DNA from: Thermoplasmata archaeon
GTDB taxonomy: Archaea > Thermoplasmatota > Thermoplasmata > Lutacidiplasmatales > UBA184
NCBI GenBank assembly: GCA_021802125.1
Contig: JAKAAX010000004.1
Location: forward strand, 4,560-68,559
DNA length: 64,000 nucleotides
Reading direction: 5' to 3'
The notes under the pieces: generated by a model
The model's database searches: none
What the model was told of the DNA's origin: nothing
Seen by the model: the letters and a program-made list of their open reading frames with translations, nothing else
Position numbers and translations under genes: made by a program
Part shown: positions 49,281 to 64,000 of the stretch, in pieces
Layout: each line of letters starts with the position of its first letter
Numbering within the stretch: the first letter of the stretch is position 1

Positions 49281-49396
49281 GGGCCTTCCAGCGGTGCAGG
49301 GTTTTGAAGCCTGGCCCCGGGGTGGCAGGGGCGCGCTTCGGTGGCGCACGACCCCCCTTCCGGGGTCCGGGGGGGTCCGGTCCGCGTCGCCACAAC

Positions 49397-49420
49397 ATTT
49401 AAAAACCCACCCTTAAATAC
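49397..49420 (+). promoter_or_regulatory. tbp promoter with two tandem TATA-like elements (ATTTAAAAA and CTTAAATAC)
   Basis: The only strongly AT-rich patch in the divergent intergenic region. The proximal element is centred about 24 nt upstream of the tbp ATG, implying a leaderless mRNA. Confidence 0.5.
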
Positions 49421-49439
49421 TCACGCGGGGCCGTTCGAG

Positions 49440-49988
49440 ATGGCAAAGATCCGTATCGAGAACGTCGTCGCGTCAACATCGCTCGGGGACGAACTTGACC
49501 TGCAGGCCATCGCCCTCGCGCTCGACGGCGCCGAGTACGAACCGGAGCAGTTCCCTGGGCTCATTTATCGTCTGAAGGAGCCCAAGACGGCGATCCTGCT
49601 CTTCCGCAGCGGGAAGGTCGTGTGCACCGGCGCGAAGAGCATGGCCGAGGTGGAGGAATCCATCCACAAGGTCGCCCAGCAGATCCGCAAGGCGGGCCAG
49701 AAGGTCAACACCCGTCCGAAGATCGAGGTCCAGAACATCGTCGCGTCCTCCGACCTGGAGTCGGAGATCAACCTCAACGCCATCGCCGTGACCCTCGGGC
49801 TCGAGCGCGTCGAGTACGAGCCGGAACAGTTCCCGGGTCTCGTCTGCCGGATCGACGAGCCTCGCGTCGTCGTGCTGCTCTTCGGGAGCGGCAAGCTGGT
49901 CTGCACGGGAGCGCGCAAGCCCTCGGACGTCGAGGTCGCGGTCCAGAAGATCACGAAGGAGCTGCAGGGCGCGGGACTGCTCCGCTGA
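49440..49988 (+). CDS. tbp: TATA-box binding protein
   Basis: 182 aa. Two direct repeats (ENVVASTSLGDELDLQAIA..EYEPEQFPGLIYRL and QNIVASSDLESEINLNAIA..EYEPEQFPGLVCRI) are diagnostic of TBP. Confidence 0.95.
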   Translation: MAKIRIENVVASTSLGDELDLQAIALALDGAEYEPEQFPGLIYRLKEPKTAILLFRSGKVVCTGAKSMAEVEESIHKVAQQIRKAGQKVNTRPKIEVQNIVASSDLESEINLNAIAVTLGLERVEYEPEQFPGLVCRIDEPRVVVLLFGSGKLVCTGARKPSDVEVAVQKITKELQGAGLLR

Positions 49989-51676: not shown

Positions 51677-52834
51677 ATGCCGGAAGGGATCATCCTCCGA
51701 GAGGAGACGCTCGACGCCTCCTACCTTCCCCCCTCGCTCCCTCACCGCGAGAAGGAGCTCGCGCTGCTCCGGGAGCGCTTCGCCCGCTCGATGGACGCCG
51801 GCCAGGGGTGGAGCCAGCTCCTGACCGGAGGGATCGGGAGCGGGAAGACCGCGCTCGCCCGGGCCCTGGGTCGGGAGCTCGCCAACCGACGGCAGCGCAA
51901 GGACAGCGCCGCGGGCGTGAAGGAGATCTACGTGAACTGCTGGCGGCGGAACACCGACCGCGCCGTCGTCCTCGAGATGCTGAACGCGGTGGACCGTCCG
52001 GTGCCGGACCGGGGGTTCTCTGTGTCCGAGATGCTCGACACGTTCGAGAAGGGGCTGCGGGAGGTCCCCTCCCCCACCCTGGTGATCCTGGACGAGGTCA
52101 GCGTCCTGCTGAAGGGCGGAAGCAAGCTCGTCTACATGCTGACCCGGGGCCGCGAGGTCGGGCTCGGGCCGCTCTCGCTCCTGCTCATCGCCCCGCGCGA
52201 CGTCCTTCCCTACCTGGACGCGGCCAGCCGGAGCGGCTTCGGGGTGACCCACCGACTCCAGCTGCCGAAGTACCTCCGAGAGCCGCTGACGGACATCGTG
52301 CTGGCCCGCGGCGCGCTCGCCCTCCGACCCGGTTCCCTCTCTCGCGAGGTGGCCGAGCAGATCGCGCGCGTGGCGGAGCCGCAGGGGGACGCCCGTCTGG
52401 CCCTCGAGCTCCTCTCCGGCTCCGCGCACCGCGCCGAGGAGCGGGGGGCCCGCGAGCTCACCCCCGAGGACGTTCGCTGGGCGAAGGCCTCGACCTACCC
52501 CACGATGACGGAGGAGAAACTGGACGGGCTCTCCCCCCCCTCCCTCCTGGTCCTGCTGGCCCTCGCGCGGACGCTTCGTGCGCCAGGAACCTGGGTGCGG
52601 ATGGAGAAGGTCCGGAAGGCCTACGGTTCGGCCTCCGAGGAGTACGGGCTCCCGGCCGGGAGCAGGGTCACTTTCTGGAGGATGGTCAAGGCGCTGGAGC
52701 AGGAGGGTCTGCTCGAGATGGAGTACACGCGACCCGGCGCGCCTGCCAAACTGACCCAGGACGAGATCCCCGCAAGCCTCCTCGAACTCGTCCTCCAGGA
52801 ACGCCTGGCGCGTCCGTCCTCGGCCCAAAGTTAA
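51677..52834 (+). CDS. cdc6: Orc1/Cdc6 replication initiator (AAA+ ATPase with C-terminal winged helix)
   Basis: 385 aa. Walker A GGIGSGKTA, Walker B LVILDEV, sensor motifs, C-terminal wH. Confidence 0.9.
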   Translation: MPEGIILREETLDASYLPPSLPHREKELALLRERFARSMDAGQGWSQLLTGGIGSGKTALARALGRELANRRQRKDSAAGVKEIYVNCWRRNTDRAVVLEMLNAVDRPVPDRGFSVSEMLDTFEKGLREVPSPTLVILDEVSVLLKGGSKLVYMLTRGREVGLGPLSLLLIAPRDVLPYLDAASRSGFGVTHRLQLPKYLREPLTDIVLARGALALRPGSLSREVAEQIARVAEPQGDARLALELLSGSAHRAEERGARELTPEDVRWAKASTYPTMTEEKLDGLSPPSLLVLLALARTLRAPGTWVRMEKVRKAYGSASEEYGLPAGSRVTFWRMVKALEQEGLLEMEYTRPGAPAKLTQDEIPASLLELVLQERLARPSSAQS

Positions 52835-55333
52835 ATGGCCAAGGCCCTGTGGCCAACGCCGATGACCAGCAGCCGCCGGGGATTTGCCACGCACTCGGGG
52901 TCGCACGGTAGCCCGGGGGGCCGGCCCAGGAAGACGGAGCCAGCCTCTCAGAGCGCTCCCGGGCAGGCACCACCATCCGAGGGGGCGCCTGCGGCCACGT
53001 CCTCGACCCCGGCGTCCGGCGCCCCGGACCCCCTCGCACCCATCCGGGAGCTGAGGGCGGAGGGGCAGTTCGAGCAGGCCCTGAGCCAGGTCGACCTCAT
53101 GGTCCGCGCCTCTCCTCACGACGCCCTGGCCCGCGAGCAGCGCGGTCTCGTTCTCCTCGAACTCCGACGGGCCAGCGAGGCTCTGAGCGAGCTCGACCAG
53201 GCCCTGTCGCTGCGGTCCGACCTCGCGGCGGCGCACGCCGCGCGGGGGGATGCCCTCCGCGTGCTGGGCGACAAGGAACGGGCGCTGTGGGCCTACGCGA
53301 AGGCGCTCCAGCTCGTTCCCGGCTCGGAGGCCTGGCGCAAGGCCCGGCGCGAGACCGCGGCGGAGTTCATGGGGATGGACCCCAACCTCGACTCCCACAC
53401 CCTCGCCATGGAGGCCATGCGCAGGGGACAACGGGGGCTCGCGGTCGAGCTCTCGGAGGAGGCTCTCTCGAACGGGGAGACCGACCCGGAGGCGTGGAGG
53501 GAGGATGCGCGGCAGCTCAAGCAGGAGAAGCTCTACGACGACCTGCTCACCCGGGCCAGGGCGAGGCTGGCCCGCTTCTCCGGAGACCCCGTTGCCCAGG
53601 CCTACCTGGGCTACGCCCTCTTCGGCAAGGAGGATTGGAAGGGCTGCCTCGAGCCTCTGACCGCCGCGGCGCGCGACCCGAAGGAGCGACGCGAGGTCAC
53701 GCTCTGCCGCGCCCGTGCCCTCTACCGGCTCAAGCGCGAGGAAGAGGCCACGCCCCTCGTCGACGGGCTCCTGGCGGAGGACGTTGACGACATGGATCTC
53801 CTCCGGATGGCCCTCTCCTCCCCCTGGGCGAGGCAGAGGCCCTTCCCGGCGCTCAAGGGAGCCCACCGCCTGGTCCTGAAGTTCCCCAAGGACCCGGAGA
53901 CCTGGCGGGCGCTCGTCGTCGCCTCCTTCCGCGTGGGCCACTACGCGGAGACCGCCGAAGCGGCCGGCAAGGTCCGCGCCCTCGACCCCAAGCAGGTGGG
54001 GGTGGCGCTCCCGCAGGCGATCGCGCTCGCACGGCTGGGACACCTCGACCAAGCGGCCCAGCTCCTCGAGGATTACCTGAAAGAGGACGCGGAGCACCCG
54101 GAGGCCTGGAGAGAGCTCGGGCTCATCCTCCACCGTCAAAAGAAGCTCCCCGAGGCCGAGGCCGCGCTGAAGAAGGCGGTCGAGCTGGACCCCGACCACG
54201 TCGGAGCCCGGATGGCCCTCGCGACGTTGCTCTCCAAGCTCTCGAAGGACGAGCAGGCCGAGGCGGAGTTCCTGGAGGTCACCCGCCGCGATCCCAAGAA
54301 CGTCGAGGCCTTCTACGACCTCGGGGTCGTACGCCAGAAGCTCGAGAAGGACGCGCTCGCGGTGGAAGCGTTCCAGGCCGCGCTGGCGCGCGACCGGTCC
54401 CACGTGAACGCCGCTTCGAACCTCGCTGTCGTCCTGGCGAAGGGGAAGCGGTACGACGAGGCGGCCAAGGAACTGGAGGCCACGCTTGCCTTCCGTCCCG
54501 ACGCCAAGGACCTCAACTTCAACCTGGGCCAGGTCTACCTGCTCCAGGGCCGGTCGGACGAGGCCTATCTCCAGTTCAAGCGGGCCCACCGGCTCGATCC
54601 CTTCGACTACGAGAGCTGGAACCACCGGGGCGCGGCGCTCTCGAAGATGCACCGCATCGACGAGCGGAGCGCGGAGGGGTGGATGGCCCTGGGCCGGGGG
54701 TTCCTCCGGCGTCAGGGGTTCTCGGAGGCGCACGAGTGCTTCCGCCGCGCGCTCGAGCTCGACCCGCAGAACGAGGAGGCGAAGCGCCTGCGTGCGGAGA
54801 GCCTGTCCTCCGTCTACGGGGTCGCTCCGACCGCGACGGAGGAGTGGCTGCAGACCTCTCGCATGCTGGTGGAGATGCACCAGTTCGCAGATGCGCTGGA
54901 CGCGCTCTCGGTGGTCCTGATGCTCGAACCGGAACAGCCGCAGGCCCGTGTGCTCACCGGCCGTGCCCTCCTCTCCCTGGGGAAGGCGCAGGTCGCGGTC
55001 CACCAGGCCGACCTGGCCCTCCGCTCGGAGAAGGACAACGCGGGGGCCTGGGCGCTCAAGGGGGAGGCGCTGCTGGAGCTCCAGAAGCCCGCGGAAGCCT
55101 TGACCTGCTTCGACTGGCTCTTGGAGCACGGATCGAAGGACCCCGCCGTCCACACGTTCCGAGGTGTCGCGCTGGCGGCCCTGGGGCGCGGGGAAGACGC
55201 GGTGAAGGCGTTCGACGACGCGCTCAAGCGCGACCCTCACTTCCGTGAGGCGTGGCACCACAAGGGTGTCGAGCTCGAGAAGGAAGGCCACTACGAGCGG
55301 GCGGCCGAGGCCTTCACCAAGGGCTTCAGCTGA
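52835..55333 (+). CDS. TPR-repeat protein (more than 15 TPR units)
   Basis: 832 aa. Start codon directly follows the cdc6 stop (TAAATG). Repeated W-LG-Y..A...AL-P motif throughout. Confidence 0.7.
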   Translation: MAKALWPTPMTSSRRGFATHSGSHGSPGGRPRKTEPASQSAPGQAPPSEGAPAATSSTPASGAPDPLAPIRELRAEGQFEQALSQVDLMVRASPHDALAREQRGLVLLELRRASEALSELDQALSLRSDLAAAHAARGDALRVLGDKERALWAYAKALQLVPGSEAWRKARRETAAEFMGMDPNLDSHTLAMEAMRRGQRGLAVELSEEALSNGETDPEAWREDARQLKQEKLYDDLLTRARARLARFSGDPVAQAYLGYALFGKEDWKGCLEPLTAAARDPKERREVTLCRARALYRLKREEEATPLVDGLLAEDVDDMDLLRMALSSPWARQRPFPALKGAHRLVLKFPKDPETWRALVVASFRVGHYAETAEAAGKVRALDPKQVGVALPQAIALARLGHLDQAAQLLEDYLKEDAEHPEAWRELGLILHRQKKLPEAEAALKKAVELDPDHVGARMALATLLSKLSKDEQAEAEFLEVTRRDPKNVEAFYDLGVVRQKLEKDALAVEAFQAALARDRSHVNAASNLAVVLAKGKRYDEAAKELEATLAFRPDAKDLNFNLGQVYLLQGRSDEAYLQFKRAHRLDPFDYESWNHRGAALSKMHRIDERSAEGWMALGRGFLRRQGFSEAHECFRRALELDPQNEEAKRLRAESLSSVYGVAPTATEEWLQTSRMLVEMHQFADALDALSVVLMLEPEQPQARVLTGRALLSLGKAQVAVHQADLALRSEKDNAGAWALKGEALLELQKPAEALTCFDWLLEHGSKDPAVHTFRGVALAALGRGEDAVKAFDDALKRDPHFREAWHHKGVELEKEGHYERAAEAFTKGFS

Positions 55334-61036: not shown

Positions 61037-61708
61037 ATGGGGCAGAAGGTCCCCGCGAGCATTTCGGGTGCTCGTAGGGTCTCCCTGAAAGGTCCGCTAC
61101 CGCTCGAAAACGTGGGGCTCAAAACGAACGCCAGGTCCAGGGTTGCCGAGACCCGGGCCGAAGCCCCCCGCCCAAGCGGTAGTACGGCGGCCGTCGACCT
61201 GCCATCGCTCTCGCGGGCGATCCGCCGGGCGGTGGGCCATGACGGCATGCGGCGAGAGGACGCGGACGCGATCGCGGGCCATATCCTGAACTTCTTCGGC
61301 TTCAACGAACGGATCATCGACAACGTTCTGGAGCCTGACGACCGAGACACGTTCTACATGCTCGAGGACTCCGGCATCCTCGAGACCGAGCGCGACGAGA
61401 CCACGCTCTACGACGGCCGGGAGTGGCGGATCCACTACTGGATGTTCCGGAAGGACCGCATCCTCCAGCTGGCCAAGGAGGAGGCCGACGCCTCCCCCGA
61501 AGAGAAGGAGGAGGAGGTCCCGATCGCCCCGCTCCCCCGCGTCAGCGCCCCTACCCCCCTCGTCGTCCCCACCGCAGACTCCTCCGTCTACCACCACCTT
61601 TCCGACGAGGCGTGGGGGAAGCGGGAGGAGGAGGGCGAGGAGGCCGAGTCGCCCCAGCTCTCCCTGCCCAACTCGCGCTTCACGCGCGCACCGCTCTCGC
61701 CGGGTTGA
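61037..61708 (+). CDS. Hypothetical protein with acidic C-terminal tail
   Basis: 223 aa. Conserved-looking core AIAGHILNFFGFNERIIDNVLEPDDRDTFYMLEDSGILETERDETTLYDGREWRIHYW. Glu-rich C-terminus. Confidence 0.45.
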   Translation: MGQKVPASISGARRVSLKGPLPLENVGLKTNARSRVAETRAEAPRPSGSTAAVDLPSLSRAIRRAVGHDGMRREDADAIAGHILNFFGFNERIIDNVLEPDDRDTFYMLEDSGILETERDETTLYDGREWRIHYWMFRKDRILQLAKEEADASPEEKEEEVPIAPLPRVSAPTPLVVPTADSSVYHHLSDEAWGKREEEGEEAESPQLSLPNSRFTRAPLSPG

Positions 61709-61786
61709 TCTCCGGACATCCTTCGGGCGGGCACCCTCCTTCAGGGTGGCTTGAGCGCTCATGTACTGGACCCCCTAGCCTCCTCC

Positions 61787-62431
61787 GTGCGCAGGTTCCT
61801 CCTCCTGGTCCATCGTGTCCCCGTCGACGGGGAGTTCACCCTCAACGACCTCGCGGGAGCCGGAGGGCGCGTGGACGAGGTGGCCTCCGTGGTGGGCGCG
61901 GCGTTCCTCATCTCCAACGGGCTCCGGCGCGACACCGAACTGACGCTGCTCTTCGCCCACCCTCCCGAAAGGGCCCGCCGGATCCGGATGGTCGGATCCC
62001 GCCTGAAGTTCCTGAATCCAGACGAGCGGTCGACCGCCGCCCTGCTCAAGAACGCGCTCGTGCGGAGCTGGACGCGGCCGGACGTTGAAATGGAGACGAC
62101 CCCCGGGATCTTCGTCGGCCCGGGTCATCCGGAAGAGGACCTGCGCTCGTTCCTGGCGACCCCGTCGACGTACTGGGCCACCGAGGGGGGACGACCCCTC
62201 CGCGGTCTCGAGCTACCCGAGAGCTGCGGGTTCGTGGTCAGCGACCCCTGGGACCCCACCCAAGCCGAGAGGGCGATCCTGACCGGGTCGGGAGTGCCCC
62301 AGGTGGCGCTGGGCCCCCTCTCCTTGAGGGCCTCCCAGTGCGTGATCCTGCTCCAGAACGCGCTCGACCTTCGGGCGAGCCCTTCGCCTTCGAGCCCCAA
62401 CGAGGCCCCGACAGGGGCTAGAACCCCGTAG
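61787..62431 (+). CDS. trmY: tRNA (pseudouridine54-N1)-methyltransferase TrmY (SPOUT, DUF358/MJ1640 family)
   Basis: About 214 aa from the GTG at 61787 (track has a TTG at 61751). FTLNDLAGAGGRVDEV...IRMVGSRLKFLNPDERSTAALLKNAL matches the TrmY family. Confidence 0.8.
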   Translation: MRRFLLLVHRVPVDGEFTLNDLAGAGGRVDEVASVVGAAFLISNGLRRDTELTLLFAHPPERARRIRMVGSRLKFLNPDERSTAALLKNALVRSWTRPDVEMETTPGIFVGPGHPEEDLRSFLATPSTYWATEGGRPLRGLELPESCGFVVSDPWDPTQAERAILTGSGVPQVALGPLSLRASQCVILLQNALDLRASPSPSSPNEAPTGARTP

Positions 62432-62462: not shown

Positions 62463-63530
62463 TCAGGTGGTCAGGGCCTTGTCCAGCGTCCGAGGCTCCA
62501 GCCCGCCCACCACAGCGGTGAGCCGGACCCGGTCCCAGCGCTCCGGATGGGTCCGGAACCCGGGAGTGATCTCCGCAGGGTCGTGCAGCTCGCGTCGGAA
62601 GGCCTCCACGATCCGATGGTAGGCCCCGAACGTCAGGTCGCTTCCTCCCTCGACGAAGAGGATGGCCGGTCCCGCTCGGTCCTTCACCTCGAAATCCAGG
62701 AGGCCCTCCCGCAGCGCCTGACGGACCAGACCGTCGGGGTCGCTGGGATGCCCTTCCGCGAAGAGCAGGGTGGAGAGCCCTCCCCCCTCGAGCAGCCGCC
62801 GGACGTGGGCCAGGTCGATGTTCATTTCGGAGGGGTGCCGGACCATGTCGACAAGGCCGGAGACGAGGGCGCGAAGGTAGGAGTTCCGGTAGTGGAACAC
62901 CTGCTTGATCGGAAGCCGGTCGAACTTGCGGAGCCGCTCGTTGGCGAAGGCCAGCAGGGCTCCCCCATTGGCCTGGAGCTCCGACAGGGCCTTCGAGGTG
63001 TTCTCCCGGATCCTCGCGCTCGTGGCGAGCTCCGCGTGGAACGGAAGGAAGACCACGCTGATCGGCAACGCGCCCACCTCGCGGGTCAGCGAGAGGCAAA
63101 GCGGCGCGAGGGCGCTCCCCGTCCCGCCTCCGAGGCCGGCCATGAGGAAGACGATGTCGAAGTCGCGAAGCCGCGCGAGAAGGTCCTCCCGGAACTCCCC
63201 GAGACTGGTGAGGACCGCCTCGCGGTCCCCGCCGCTCCCCCGACCGGAGAGCGCCGCCTGGCCCACCAGGATCCGGCGGTGGGCCCGCGCGTTCAAGAGA
63301 TGGTGGCCATCGGTGTTCACGGCGAGAGTCTCGACCCCGAGCAGCTGCTGGTCGAAGAGGTCCGTGACCGCTTCGGACCCGGCGCCCCCCAGGCCCACGA
63401 CCAACGCCCGCGGCGCGCGGGCCAGTTCCCCCCAGGGATACTCGTGAGGGCCGGAAGCGGGAGGCGCTGCCGGCCGGGGGCTCGCCGTCTCTCCCATCGT
63501 CCCTCCTGGGGCTCCACCCCGCGGTGACAC
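62463..63530 (-). CDS. Divergent FtsZ/tubulin-superfamily GTPase (FtsZ-like, short form)
   Basis: 355 aa. G1 region VVGLGGAGSEAV, tubulin signature GLGGGTGSALAPL, T7-loop-like NIDLAHV. No long C-terminal linker/tail. Confidence 0.7.
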   Translation of the reverse strand: MSPRGGAPGGTMGETASPRPAAPPASGPHEYPWGELARAPRALVVGLGGAGSEAVTDLFDQQLLGVETLAVNTDGHHLLNARAHRRILVGQAALSGRGSGGDREAVLTSLGEFREDLLARLRDFDIVFLMAGLGGGTGSALAPLCLSLTREVGALPISVVFLPFHAELATSARIRENTSKALSELQANGGALLAFANERLRKFDRLPIKQVFHYRNSYLRALVSGLVDMVRHPSEMNIDLAHVRRLLEGGGLSTLLFAEGHPSDPDGLVRQALREGLLDFEVKDRAGPAILFVEGGSDLTFGAYHRIVEAFRRELHDPAEITPGFRTHPERWDRVRLTAVVGGLEPRTLDKALTT

Positions 63531-63546
63531 TCAGCCAGGACGGAGC

Positions 63547-63927
63547 CTAGCCGCCCTCGGTCACGAGCCCATCCCCTTCAGGAGAGGTGCCTCGGTGCGA
63601 GCTGCTTCCGCCGTGCGCCGAGTGACGGCCGATCTGCTCGAGCTTGCTGCGGACGTACTCCCGCACCGCCGTGCGGATCGCGTCCTCCATGTCGACGTTG
63701 ACCCCCTCGTCGGCGAGCTCTTTCAGCTGAAGGTAGTCATGGTGGGGAAGGCTCACGAGGGTCTTACGCGCACGGGTCGTCGGCAGCTGCACCTGAATGT
63801 ACTCCTCGAGCGCGGCGCGTATCGTGTCCGAGATCGTGGGCTGGCCCAGGTTCTCCTGGATCCGCTTGAGCCCGTCCACCAGTTCCTGGGGGATGCGGAC
63901 CGTCACGCGCTCCGACGTATCCGGCAT
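63547..63927 (-). CDS. Tandem ribbon-helix-helix (CopG/Arc/MetJ-type) DNA-binding protein
   Basis: About 126 aa from the ATG at 63927. Two RHH units (ERVTVRIPQELVDGLKRI and KTLVSLPHHDYLQLKELA). Immediately upstream of the FtsZ-like gene on the same strand, 16 nt apart. Confidence 0.65.
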   Translation of the reverse strand: MPDTSERVTVRIPQELVDGLKRIQENLGQPTISDTIRAALEEYIQVQLPTTRARKTLVSLPHHDYLQLKELADEGVNVDMEDAIRTAVREYVRSKLEQIGRHSAHGGSSSHRGTSPEGDGLVTEGG

Positions 63928-64000
63928 GGGCGTCTGACACTCGTCCGACAGATACATGCGGCTCGGGGGAGATAAGCGTATCGGAATTTCGTCCCCTGCC

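Follow-up and report, generated by a model that had tools for sequence, protein, structure and literature searches.

A tandem-RHH regulator and a tail-less FtsZ2-type GTPase: a probable lineage-specific derivative of the archaeal cdrS-ftsZ2 operon in an uncultured Thermoplasmata archaeon

A pair of genes was identified on the minus strand of the 64-kb stretch of DNA analysed here (the window). The upstream gene (63547..63927) encodes a tandem-RHH, CdrS-type regulator of 126 aa plus stop, assigned from its matches to RHH_1 and NF058555. The downstream gene (62463..63497) encodes a tail-less FtsZ2-type GTPase of 344 aa plus stop, assigned from profile, fold and FtsZ2-side evidence. The domain matches of both ORFs confirm the original prediction of an operon that combines a tandem-RHH protein with a short divergent FtsZ-family GTPase. 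The regulator start at 63927 also stands as first proposed, since it is fixed by homologues; an alternative RHH ORF of 136 aa would run through the operator boxes described below. The GTPase, first given as 355 aa, is shorter: its start is the ATG at 63497, where the methionine is invariant in homologue alignments and an AGGAGG Shine-Dalgarno sequence (63502..63507, minus strand) lies 4 nt upstream. With this start the spacer between the two genes becomes 49 nt instead of 16 nt, and it includes the AGGAGG ribosome-binding site. The two genes probably form a single transcription unit.

Pfam RHH_1 matches the regulator in two stretches. RHH unit 1 (63784..63909, minus strand; residues 7-48) has the beta-strand RVTVRIP, and RHH unit 2 (63640..63765, minus strand; residues 55-96) has the beta-strand KTLVSLP. 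The two halves align in register over 42 columns (hhalign E 2.7e-5), which bears out the two RHH units read from the sequence at first, and a trace of the duplication is found at the DNA level as a direct repeat (D1) with a spacing of 144 nt. The best NCBIfam match of the protein is CdrS (NF058555, 1e-8), as it is for the RHH proteins upstream of three other FtsZ2-type genes, with a score of 35 bits that is far under the haloarchaeal cutoff of 100. The same haloarchaea-built model gives only 59.5 bits on a canonical single-RHH protein from metagenomes. A PDB sequence profile search retrieved marginal RHH matches only. The AF2 monomer model contains four helices, as expected of two RHH units, at a pLDDT of 58 and with the strands unpaired. 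The regulator is an internally duplicated CdrS-type RHH protein with two units in a single chain, which may pair with each other as a pseudo-dimer or pair between chains. Its C-terminal tail is conserved and disordered. Two linker-joined RHH motifs in one polypeptide are also found in AvtR of Acidianus filamentous virus 6, a protein reported to act as a DNA-binding monomer and autorepressor (PDB 4HV0). AvtR, however, is viral and unrelated to FtsZ, and no sequence relationship between it and the window RHH protein was detected.

The GTPase is FtsZ proper, neither CetZ nor TubZ. Pfam Tubulin (82.5 bits, 6e-23) and FtsZ_C (30.2 bits, 5.8e-7) both match it over their cutoffs, and Tubulin_2 stays under its cutoff of 27 at 21 bits. 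Against PDB profiles the GTPase scores 159-244 bits with FtsZ, 59-65 bits with CetZ, 31.6 bits with TubZ/RepX and 29.7 bits with gamma-tubulin. The AF2 model has a pLDDT of 92, and in a Foldseek search against the PDB its best 50 matches are all FtsZ, with TM-scores mostly of 0.75-0.93. The suggestion that it belongs to a poorly characterised FtsZ-like family also held. The GTPase is a member of a distinct subfamily, most members of which are annotated as 'hypothetical protein' by NCBI, and it scores 185.9 bits with the FtsZ equivalog model TIGR00065, under the curated cutoff of 295.2.

Several near-invariant FtsZ residues in T1, T3, T4 and T7 are substituted throughout this family, while its GGGTGS and NTD motifs are kept. 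The T1/G1 loop of the window protein, GLGGAGSEA (63369..63395, minus strand), had been reported as lacking; it is present and, by its residues, follows the GGAG pattern of archaea, with Glu standing where Asn is otherwise invariant. Family alignment places E or D at this position in 69/69 members, against N in 147/152 reference FtsZs. The T4 signature GGGTGSA (63111..63131, minus strand) and the T7-like NxDxxH loop are found as first described, the latter as NIDLAH (62805..62822, minus strand). In T4, GGGTGS is intact in the window and the last Gly is changed to Ala; the family alignment has A here in all 69 members and G in all 152 references. The T7 hydrolysis motif is defined as NxDxx[D/E] (PMC12583498), and the second, catalytic acidic residue is His in the window protein. 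Among the 69 family members this last T7 position is S in 51, H in 10, T in 4, L in 3 and N in 1, and D or E in none, compared with D in 143/152 references. An Asp-to-Asn change at the guanine contact of H7 was considered as a further family-specific mark and rejected, as N also occurs in 22/152 references. The protein ends with ...GGLEPRTLDKALTT directly after the globular core, in line with the C-terminal tail noted as absent at the outset. The GID-type C-terminal motif, which in archaeal FtsZ is a SepF-binding peptide (motif definition from PMC8178401), is missing from all family members; the form G[IVL][DE]F persists in FtsZ1 of Thermoplasmata and in canonical FtsZ2.

For phylogenetic placement, anchors were labelled by gene context, with FtsZ-SecE-NusG-L11 taken as FtsZ1 (L033-L036) and a small RHH gene directly upstream taken as FtsZ2 (L030). 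In neighbour-joining bootstrap quartets the family joins FtsZ2 in 81-84%, FtsZ1 in 2% and bacteria in 17%. An FtsZ2 HMM outscores the FtsZ1 HMM by 29-55 bits in every intact member tested, and this classifier sorts the controls labelled by gene context correctly. A 'PS..N' signature before T7 is also common to the family and FtsZ2-type sequences. The family is monophyletic in 100/100 neighbour-joining bootstraps (L008 and L041, whose ORF translations were faulty, left out) and sits on a long stem, with 324 bits within the family and at most 205 bits to anything else. Its sister is a tail-less FtsZ of 320 aa from a Sysuiplasma-like genome (48-60/100 bootstraps), which is likewise preceded by a homologous tandem RHH (hhalign E 5e-24) and lies 1 kb away from a canonical FtsZ1-SecE-Spt5-L11 cluster. 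These results suggest that the GTPase belongs on the FtsZ2 side, in a derived clade with a long branch. Support for this placement is moderate: it comes from neighbour-joining quartets and from HMM score margins, not from a maximum-likelihood tree, and the FtsZ2 side has a single independent reference anchored by an RHH gene.

The family was found only in uncultured Thermoplasmata (Lutacidiplasmatales and relatives). It is under strong purifying selection, with a mean column identity of 64% over 70 sequences. A tblastn search of the 64-kb window found no second FtsZ, and the adjoining 10 kb (L001) contains none either; the five Thermoplasmata FtsZ1 loci looked up all come from assemblies in which the family is not known to be present. 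A literature search on Lutacidiplasma and FtsZ returned nothing useful.

A tandem RHH gene lies directly upstream of the GTPase gene in 24/24 species-representative genomes carrying the family, so the pairing expected from the window is conserved in related genomes and is far above chance. The RHH-FtsZ spacers are 12-49 nt in 23/26 loci examined, most of them with GGAGG-like purine runs. Neighbouring genes encode TrmY, a CCA-adding enzyme, Cdc6, TBP and radical-SAM enzymes, and the GC content is flat around the locus (0.66-0.71). The setting is a housekeeping chromosome. A chromosomal archaeal GTPase of this kind with an RHH partner had been thought undescribed, and here the original prediction overlooked the published cdrS-ftsZ2, a co-transcribed and widely conserved archaeal unit (PMC7439475, PMC8406309). 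RHH_1 or 'parD' genes are usual beside ftsZ2 (PMC9871819, PMC8178401).

Upstream of the regulator, two 7-nt boxes with the palindrome GTCNGAC were found by motif scan: a distal box GTCGGAC (63943..63949, minus strand) and a proximal box GTCAGAC (63932..63938, minus strand) that starts at -11 from the RHH ATG. They sit between the RHH start codon and a TATA-like element, TTATCT (63970..63975, minus strand), read from the sequence as the putative operon promoter. At an equivalent distance upstream of the boxes, the TATA-like position reads TTCATATAC, TTCAAATAC or TTTAAGC in relatives. This pair is the only GTCNGAC pair at most 30 nt apart in the 64 kb. A GTCNGAC box pair is present in 26/26 related loci, with no further pair in 228 kb, and in every one of the 26 the proximal box begins between -10 and -12. 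The distance between box centres is 11 nt in the window and 21 nt in one locus (L021), and almost every other locus has 22 nt; in three loci a third box follows another 22 nt upstream. The spacings of 11, 22 or 22+22 nt are multiples of the DNA helical repeat, one turn in the window and two turns in relatives.

The operator is also found beyond the family. In a metagenome scan with the 22-nt-spaced motif, 63/74 matches lie directly upstream of RHH-ftsZ operons, compared with 2/28 and 0/18 when the spacing is one base off. Behind three of the matches stands a canonical cdrS of 59-62 aa with one RHH, and the FtsZ2 encoded next carries a GHLIDFL tail; the operator of these canonical cdrS-ftsZ2 loci takes the form GTCNGAC-N15-GTCNGAC. 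The strand residues R-x-T-x-R of unit 1 are identical to those of RITIRLP in single-RHH CdrS-type proteins behind the same operator. A DHVE2 ftsZ2-type gene has the boxes without an RHH gene between. Evidence for a wider regulon was not obtained, as the strict pattern in metagenomes is not enriched outside RHH-ftsZ loci (about 11 'other' matches at the correct spacing and 18-26 at wrong spacings). The text and supplements of the two published CdrS papers hold no CdrS motif sequence comparable with GTCNGAC.

The same repeat could in principle act in RNA. Written as an inverted repeat, GTCAGACAA-N11-TTGTCTGAC, it lies in the predicted leader with its 3' arm ending a few nt before the ATG, and most loci show 9 nt of complementarity between its arms, with 94% of cells pairing, as a 5' UTR hairpin controlling translation or stability would require. 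Compensatory changes, however, are absent, and 11/11 variant cells break the pairing. In the window the hairpin would consist of a 7-bp stem interrupted by a G·A mismatch and a loop of just 4 nt. The 7-nt cores are each palindromic with a free central base, which fits a two-fold symmetric protein site, the box spacings follow the DNA helical repeat, and the boxes co-occur with RHH proteins of the same beta-strand residues across distant lineages. We therefore regard a hairpin in place of an RHH operator as improbable.

The position and form of the boxes also bear on the DNA-segregation role first envisaged for this pair. In the TubZ/TubR systems of Bacillus pBtoxis, pXO1 (RepX) and phage c-st, as in the window, a DNA-binding protein and a GTPase of the tubulin superfamily share one operon, and an RHH protein that binds a centromere could couple DNA to a treadmilling tubulin-family filament in a type III system. 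The shared operon of a DNA-binding protein and a cytomotive-family GTPase, the tail of the RHH protein as a possible partner-binding peptide, and a cdc6/orc1 gene about 10 kb from the locus would all suit such a role. TubR, however, is a winged-HTH protein and not RHH, and TubZ engages TubR-DNA through its C-terminal tail, which the window GTPase lacks. The GTPase has a far higher profile score with FtsZ (244 bits) than with TubZ/RepX (31.6), has Tubulin_2 below threshold, and has no TubZ among its best 50 fold matches. The iterons or centromere-like repeats that had been anticipated upstream of 63927 are not there: the 200-nt upstream region holds two 7-nt boxes and no repeat family, and across loci the boxes number just 2-3, within the promoter or 5' UTR, in place of an array. 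The locus is also chromosomal and vertically inherited, with flat GC, and the same operator and RHH type stand ahead of canonical ftsZ2 genes. Given these differences, a TubR/TubZ-like function is very hard to credit. The box pair has the look of an operator for autoregulation and not of an iteron array. Of the outcomes that the original prediction had named as counting against it, one was found, the GTPase falling with FtsZ2, as a derived clade; the RHH gene proved to be conserved beside it, and flanking repeats do exist, in the form of operator boxes.

Taken as a whole, the locus is quite likely the archaeal cdrS-ftsZ2 cell-division operon in a derived, lineage-specific form, carried by an uncultured Thermoplasmata archaeon of high GC content. 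Halobacterium salinarum VNG0194H-VNG0192G and Haloferax volcanii HVO_0582-HVO_0581 have the same arrangement, with a small RHH gene directly upstream of ftsZ2. The haloarchaeal regulators have 55-61 aa and one RHH, whereas the window regulator has 126 aa and two RHH units. The window FtsZ2 differs from its haloarchaeal counterparts in having neither the second T7 aspartate nor a C-terminal peptide of the GID type and in its altered T1 and T4, and CdrL is absent. Published CdrS is mainly an activator with sites upstream of promoters, and the 18 listed CdrS ChIP sites of H. volcanii exclude CdrS's own promoter (PMC7439475, PMC8406309). The published sites are activating and are found 40-110 nt ahead of transcription starts; the window boxes lie between the TATA-like element and the ATG, which suggests autorepression.

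Within this cdrS-ftsZ2 derivative, the RHH protein would bind the GTCNGAC boxes and autoregulate the operon, most likely, to judge from the position of the boxes, as a repressor acting at the transcription start or close to it, and FtsZ2 abundance would be controlled in this way. Because it has lost neither the complete FtsZ fold nor the glycines that bind phosphate, the FtsZ2-type protein is probably still able to bind GTP and to take part in the division ring. Since the second T7 aspartate is lost, it probably does not activate hydrolysis in the neighbouring subunit, and since the GID-type SepF-binding peptide is lost, recruitment would take another route, for example via FtsZ1.

The GTPase could instead have degenerated into a pseudo-enzyme and act on FtsZ1 filaments as a cap or antagonist, or serve a role outside division, while still under CdrS-type regulation. 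The near-invariant T1, T3, T4 and T7 residues replaced in the whole family, the lost SepF-binding tail and the long branch are in keeping with such a protein. Strong purifying selection, the intact high-confidence fold model, the retained GGGTGS and NTD motifs and the continued linkage to a division regulator and its operator argue against it, and we consider it unlikely. The evidence from selection, fold and linkage fits a ring component and a modulator alike. A broader proposal is that throughout a large Thermoplasmata clade FtsZ2 has become a hydrolysis-inactive, tail-less subunit that works only with a tail-bearing FtsZ1, as a non-catalytic partner, stabiliser or capper dosed by a single-chain CdrS via an ancient GTCNGAC operator. 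We offer this as a speculative possibility. If true, it would be a prokaryotic parallel to the split between catalytic and non-catalytic subunits in tubulin heterodimers. Alpha/beta-tubulin has one paralogue with a non-catalytic T7 residue, which leaves the nucleotide in the contacted subunit unhydrolysed. The GTPase family, with S, H, T or L where the catalytic T7 Asp would stand, resembles this paralogue split by analogy only.

The RHH-ftsZ2 pairing itself is already known, and the claim of a pairing is therefore an ordinary one. The novel part is the variant, with its duplicated CdrS, tail-less FtsZ2, lost T7 aspartate and changed T1 and T4 residues. Most family members are labelled 'hypothetical protein', and FtsZ2 of Thermoplasmata is therefore probably undercounted in genome surveys. 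The model-organism papers did not settle whether CdrS acts directly on the cdrS-ftsZ2 promoter, or at which place (PMC7439475, PMC8406309); an operator kept from canonical cdrS-ftsZ2 loci to Thermoplasmata offers a testable answer on direct CdrS action. The duplication of the regulator arose along with the loss of the FtsZ2 tail, in Sysuiplasma-like archaea and the GTPase family, which hints at co-evolution of regulator and target. An FtsZ2 clade without the T7 aspartate and the tail, and under strong purifying selection, is a natural experiment on what FtsZ2 does beyond hydrolysis and SepF anchoring.

The locus is most probably a derivative of the cdrS-ftsZ2 module in which the regulator is doubled and a tail-less FtsZ2 carries altered catalytic residues. 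The original prediction of an RHH gene paired with an FtsZ-family gene was confirmed, with gene starts corrected. The RHH ORF, as first called (63547-63957, minus strand), matches Pfam RHH_1 in two stretches, and the tubulin/FtsZ ORF (62463-63530, minus strand) matches Pfam Tubulin (6e-23) and FtsZ_C (5.8e-7). Alignment of homologues shifts the start codon of both ORFs. Because the N-terminus M-x-[DE]-T-S-E-R-V-T-V-R-I-P is common to all relatives of the RHH protein, its start was set at ATG 63927, giving a tandem-RHH regulator gene of 126 aa (63547-63927, minus strand). The FtsZ2-type GTPase gene (62463-63497, minus strand, 344 aa) starts at ATG 63497, an invariant Met, with AGGAGG located 4 nt before it. 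The RHH-ftsZ spacer is therefore 49 nt, not 16 nt as originally predicted.

The GTPase is an FtsZ, neither a TubZ nor a CetZ. A single-sequence PDB search matched it to Methanocaldococcus jannaschii FtsZ1 (1.6e-42), with CetZ reaching only about 1e-8. The family profile scored 159–244 bits against FtsZ, 59–65 against CetZ, 31.6 against TubZ/RepX and 29.7 against gamma-tubulin. The confident AF2 model (pLDDT 92.2, pTM 0.89) contains a complete N-domain, the H7 helix and the C-domain core, and each of its best 50 PDB hits in Foldseek is an FtsZ. In a large protein database, the family comprises hundreds of 330–345-aa proteins with 48–83% identity; the named members all come from 'Thermoplasmata archaeon' MAGs, and NCBI labels them mostly 'hypothetical protein'. 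Among GTDB species representatives, 24 Thermoplasmata genomes carry the family, one of them Candidatus Lutacidiplasma silvani. In an all-against-library HMMER search, the family representative scored 324 bits and the next full-length proteins at most 205 bits, with 26–36% identity. The family is thus tight, long-branched and confined to Thermoplasmata. Three proteins of 744–840 aa with two complete FtsZ units per chain rank near the top of the GTPase's relatives outside the family: Pfam confirmed two copies each of Tubulin and FtsZ_C in P0243 and P0246, and P0244 has two HMMER-matched stretches.

For want of an annotated FtsZ2 reference, phylogenetic anchors were labelled by gene context in the fetched loci. 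In the FtsZ1 anchors L033-L036, FtsZ is followed by SecE-NusG/Spt5-L11, the published FtsZ1 context (PMC9871819, PMC8178401). A further FtsZ1 anchor (P0253) is from Methanobrevibacter, whose model species M. smithii has FtsZ1 only (PMC8178401). In the FtsZ2 anchor, from Bathyarchaeota (L030), a 51-aa RHH gene overlaps the FtsZ start, which is the published FtsZ2 context. In quartets from 100 neighbour-joining bootstraps, the family joined the FtsZ2 anchor in 81–84%, bacteria in 17% and FtsZ1 in 2%. HMMs were built from the resulting classes: for every intact family member tested, the FtsZ2 HMM beat the FtsZ1 HMM by 29–55 bits and the bacterial FtsZ HMM by 20–43 bits, and the context-labelled controls were sorted correctly by these HMMs. 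Family monophyly was recovered in 100/100 neighbour-joining bootstraps (two faulty ORF translations left out), with P0270, a 320-aa FtsZ of Candidatus Sysuiplasma, as the commonest sister. These neighbour-joining and HMM comparisons moderately support the siding of the family with FtsZ2. No second FtsZ was found in about 74 kb, the window and the 10 kb beyond it. Thermoplasmata commonly have a canonical FtsZ1, and one Sysuiplasma-like genome has it together with the tandem-RHH module. In several other Thermoplasmatota lineages, canonical FtsZ genes are doubled in tandem (364–387 aa and 368–375 aa) directly upstream of SecE-Spt5-L11 (L086 1730-4113; L090 1253-3625; L091 2501-4873; L094 2501-4899), which looks like a lineage-specific FtsZ1 duplication.

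The original prediction did not recognise a chromosomal archaeal version with an RHH partner as described, but the pairing is already in the literature as cdrS-ftsZ2. The cdrS gene encodes a 55–61-aa RHH regulator co-transcribed with ftsZ2; CdrS is reported to be needed for normal division, and the locus to be conserved across archaea (Darnell et al., 2020; Liao et al., 2021; PMC7439475, PMC8406309). An RHH_1 gene is usual in ftsZ2 neighbourhoods (Santana-Molina et al., 2023; PMC9871819), and the ftsZ2 neighbour was named 'parD' by Pende et al. (2021; PMC8178401). Among NCBIfam models, CdrS fits the RHH protein best (1e-8, 35 bits, not reaching the haloarchaeal cutoff of 100), and it is also the top-scoring model for the RHH proteins encoded upstream of three further FtsZ2-type genes. 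The pairing is conserved: a tandem RHH lies directly upstream on the same strand in 24/24 species-representative loci, on the window's own contigs and in a relative with 63% identity. Of 26 loci examined, 23 have a spacer of 12–49 nt, mostly with a GGAGG-like run. In the Sysuiplasma-like locus L088, a homologous 107-aa tandem RHH (hhalign E 5e-24 over both units) is followed by a 320-aa FtsZ, and a canonical FtsZ1-SecE-Spt5-L11-L1-L10-L12 cluster, its FtsZ1 376 aa long, lies 1 kb from this pair.

The GTPase has no C-terminal peptide. Elsewhere, the C-terminus reads G[IVL][DE]F[VIL]R in Thermoplasmata FtsZ1 and LIDFL or LISFV in canonical FtsZ2; the GID-type motif is SepF-binding (PMC8178401, PMC12583498). 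The C-terminal tail is also missing from the Sysuiplasma-like FtsZ, so tail loss coincides with the tandem RHH. The predicted motif readings GGGTGSA and NIDLAH and the absence of the tail were correct; the G1 motif, whose canonical GGGGNN form was predicted to be lacking, is present as a loop reading GLGGAGSEA. Throughout the family, three nearly invariant residues of the nucleotide site are replaced. The T1 Asn (147/152 reference FtsZs) is E or D in 69/69 family members, and the last Gly of T4 GGGTGxG (152/152 references) is A in 69/69. The second acidic residue of T7 NxDxx[D/E] is D in 143/152 references and S, H, T, L or N in the family (D/E 0/69). Five further conserved columns differ, including T3 Pro to Arg. 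The Sysuiplasma-like FtsZ keeps T1, T4 and the second T7 Asp and has lost the first T7 Asp. In FtsZ and tubulin, hydrolysis within one subunit is activated by the T7 acidic residue of its neighbour. From the loss of the second one, we infer that self-activated GTPase activity is weak or absent in the family. Most family members also carry a W-x-x-L motif before the first beta-strand (PWGELARAP here; residues about 22-30, window about 63405-63430, minus strand), modelled as a short helix, which might replace the missing tail as an interaction or membrane motif.

The RHH protein is an internal duplication: its unit 1 (residues 7-48) aligns with unit 2 (55-96) with an E value of 2.7e-5. Four helices, as expected, are present in the low-confidence AF2 model, with no paired strands. 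A natural precedent is the viral AvtR, an autorepressor with a tandem RHH in a single chain. The unit strands differ (RVTVRIP in unit 1, KTLVSLP in unit 2), yet the operator boxes described below are palindromic; unit 1 might therefore pair between chains. The C-terminal tail (residues about 97-126; window 63547-63639, minus strand) is disordered and shared by the whole family, with an invariant Gly and a terminus of E-G-G or E-G-S-P-P-P. It is missing from canonical single-RHH CdrS and could be a partner-binding peptide.

Two copies of the 7-nt palindrome GTCNGAC precede the RHH start in every family locus. Start positions are -10 to -12 for the proximal box and -32 to -34 for the distal one, with a third box at -54 to -56 in three Lutacidiplasma-type loci; in the window's clade the boxes are 11 nt apart instead of 22 nt. 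The predicted boxes in the window are at 63932-63938 (proximal) and 63943-63949 (distal). The pair is present in 26/26 loci, with no other pair in the 228 kb of those loci. The 64-kb window has no other close pair, and single boxes are rarer than expected (22 found, 43 expected). Since 11, 22 and 44 nt correspond to whole numbers of helical turns, the sites fall on one face of the DNA. A TATA-like element lies about 20–25 nt upstream of the distal box, so the boxes would straddle the transcription start and leader. A repeat search of the 200-nt intergenic region found no array; where the original prediction had suggested looking for iterons or centromere-like repeats, only this operator-type pair exists. 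An RNA hairpin formed by the boxes gains no support: 6/9 possible pairs are invariant, there is no compensatory change, and 11/11 variant cells break pairing. The RHH-ftsZ spacer holds GGCCGAGTGTC (L001 9962-9972; window about 63526-63536), which resembles the two-box-spanning sequence GGACGAGTGTC; this may reflect a third, degenerate site or be a coincidence. No earlier description of the GTCNGAC operator was found in the accessible literature.

JGI metagenome contigs were scanned for GTCAGACAA-N10-12-TTGTCTGAC, and at least 120 loci matched. Among the matches listed, 63/74 with N11, the family spacing, lie directly upstream of an RHH-ftsZ operon, against a chance background of 2/28 for N10 and 0/18 for N12. 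Sixty of these 63 listed N11 matches have the tandem RHH. The remaining three (L154, L159, L175; 56–59% GC) encode a single-RHH protein of 59–62 aa (CdrS model, 59.5 bits), followed by an FtsZ classed as FtsZ2 (479 vs 384 bits) that ends in GHLIDFL, a GID-type tail. Their DNA-facing strand residues, R-I-T-I-R-L-P, match R-V-T-V-R-I-P of the tandem RHH. The operator thus also marks canonical cdrS-ftsZ2 loci. In a DHVE2 genome (L029 277-305), two boxes 22 nt apart lie just after a TTTATATA element and directly before an ftsZ2-type gene, the second overlapping its ATG; no RHH gene is adjacent on this short contig, so the cognate regulator must lie elsewhere or past the contig end. The Sysuiplasma-like locus has the pair with one box degenerate. 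The Bathyarchaeota locus has no boxes, so the operator is not universal.

Identical RHH and GTPase proteins occur on 88–180-kb contigs of the uncultured Thermoplasmata MAG GCA_027376495.1. The window has a GC content of 68.5%, with no compositional step seen at the operon in GC along the window. The neighbours are housekeeping genes, including CCA-adding enzyme and radical-SAM enzymes, and no plasmid, virus or island signs were found around the operon. A convergent TrmY-like tRNA methyltransferase gene (61751-62431, plus strand) lies 31 nt from the ftsZ stop, beside a DUF6015 gene (61037-61708, plus strand). Both keep their position in the 63%-identical relative; the upstream flank differs. 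At a distance of about 10 kb from the operon is a Cdc6/Orc1 gene (51677-52834, plus strand), and a gene for an 832-aa TPR protein (52835-55333, plus strand) comes immediately after it. The TBP gene (49341-49988, plus strand) is 2 kb further on, its internal duplication visible as a direct repeat with 279-nt spacing. A quick repeat scan showed no obvious ORB-like origin repeats adjoining cdc6. A TubR/TubZ-type segregation system, as originally proposed, is not supported: the GTPase is an FtsZ, the boxes are not iterons, and the setting is chromosomal housekeeping.

The RHH-ftsZ2 pairing itself being known, the novelty lies in the variant features and the sharply defined operator. The operon runs from the RHH gene through a ribosome-binding site to the ftsZ2-type gene, and the conserved pair of operator boxes lies before the start codon, downstream of the TATA-like element. 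The CdrS-type regulator would bind cooperatively to the boxes along a single face of the DNA and autoregulate the operon. Judging by where the boxes lie, it would act as a repressor and thereby fix FtsZ2 dosage. The FtsZ2-type protein would bind GTP and join or modulate the division ring, acting without SepF tethering and without activating hydrolysis.
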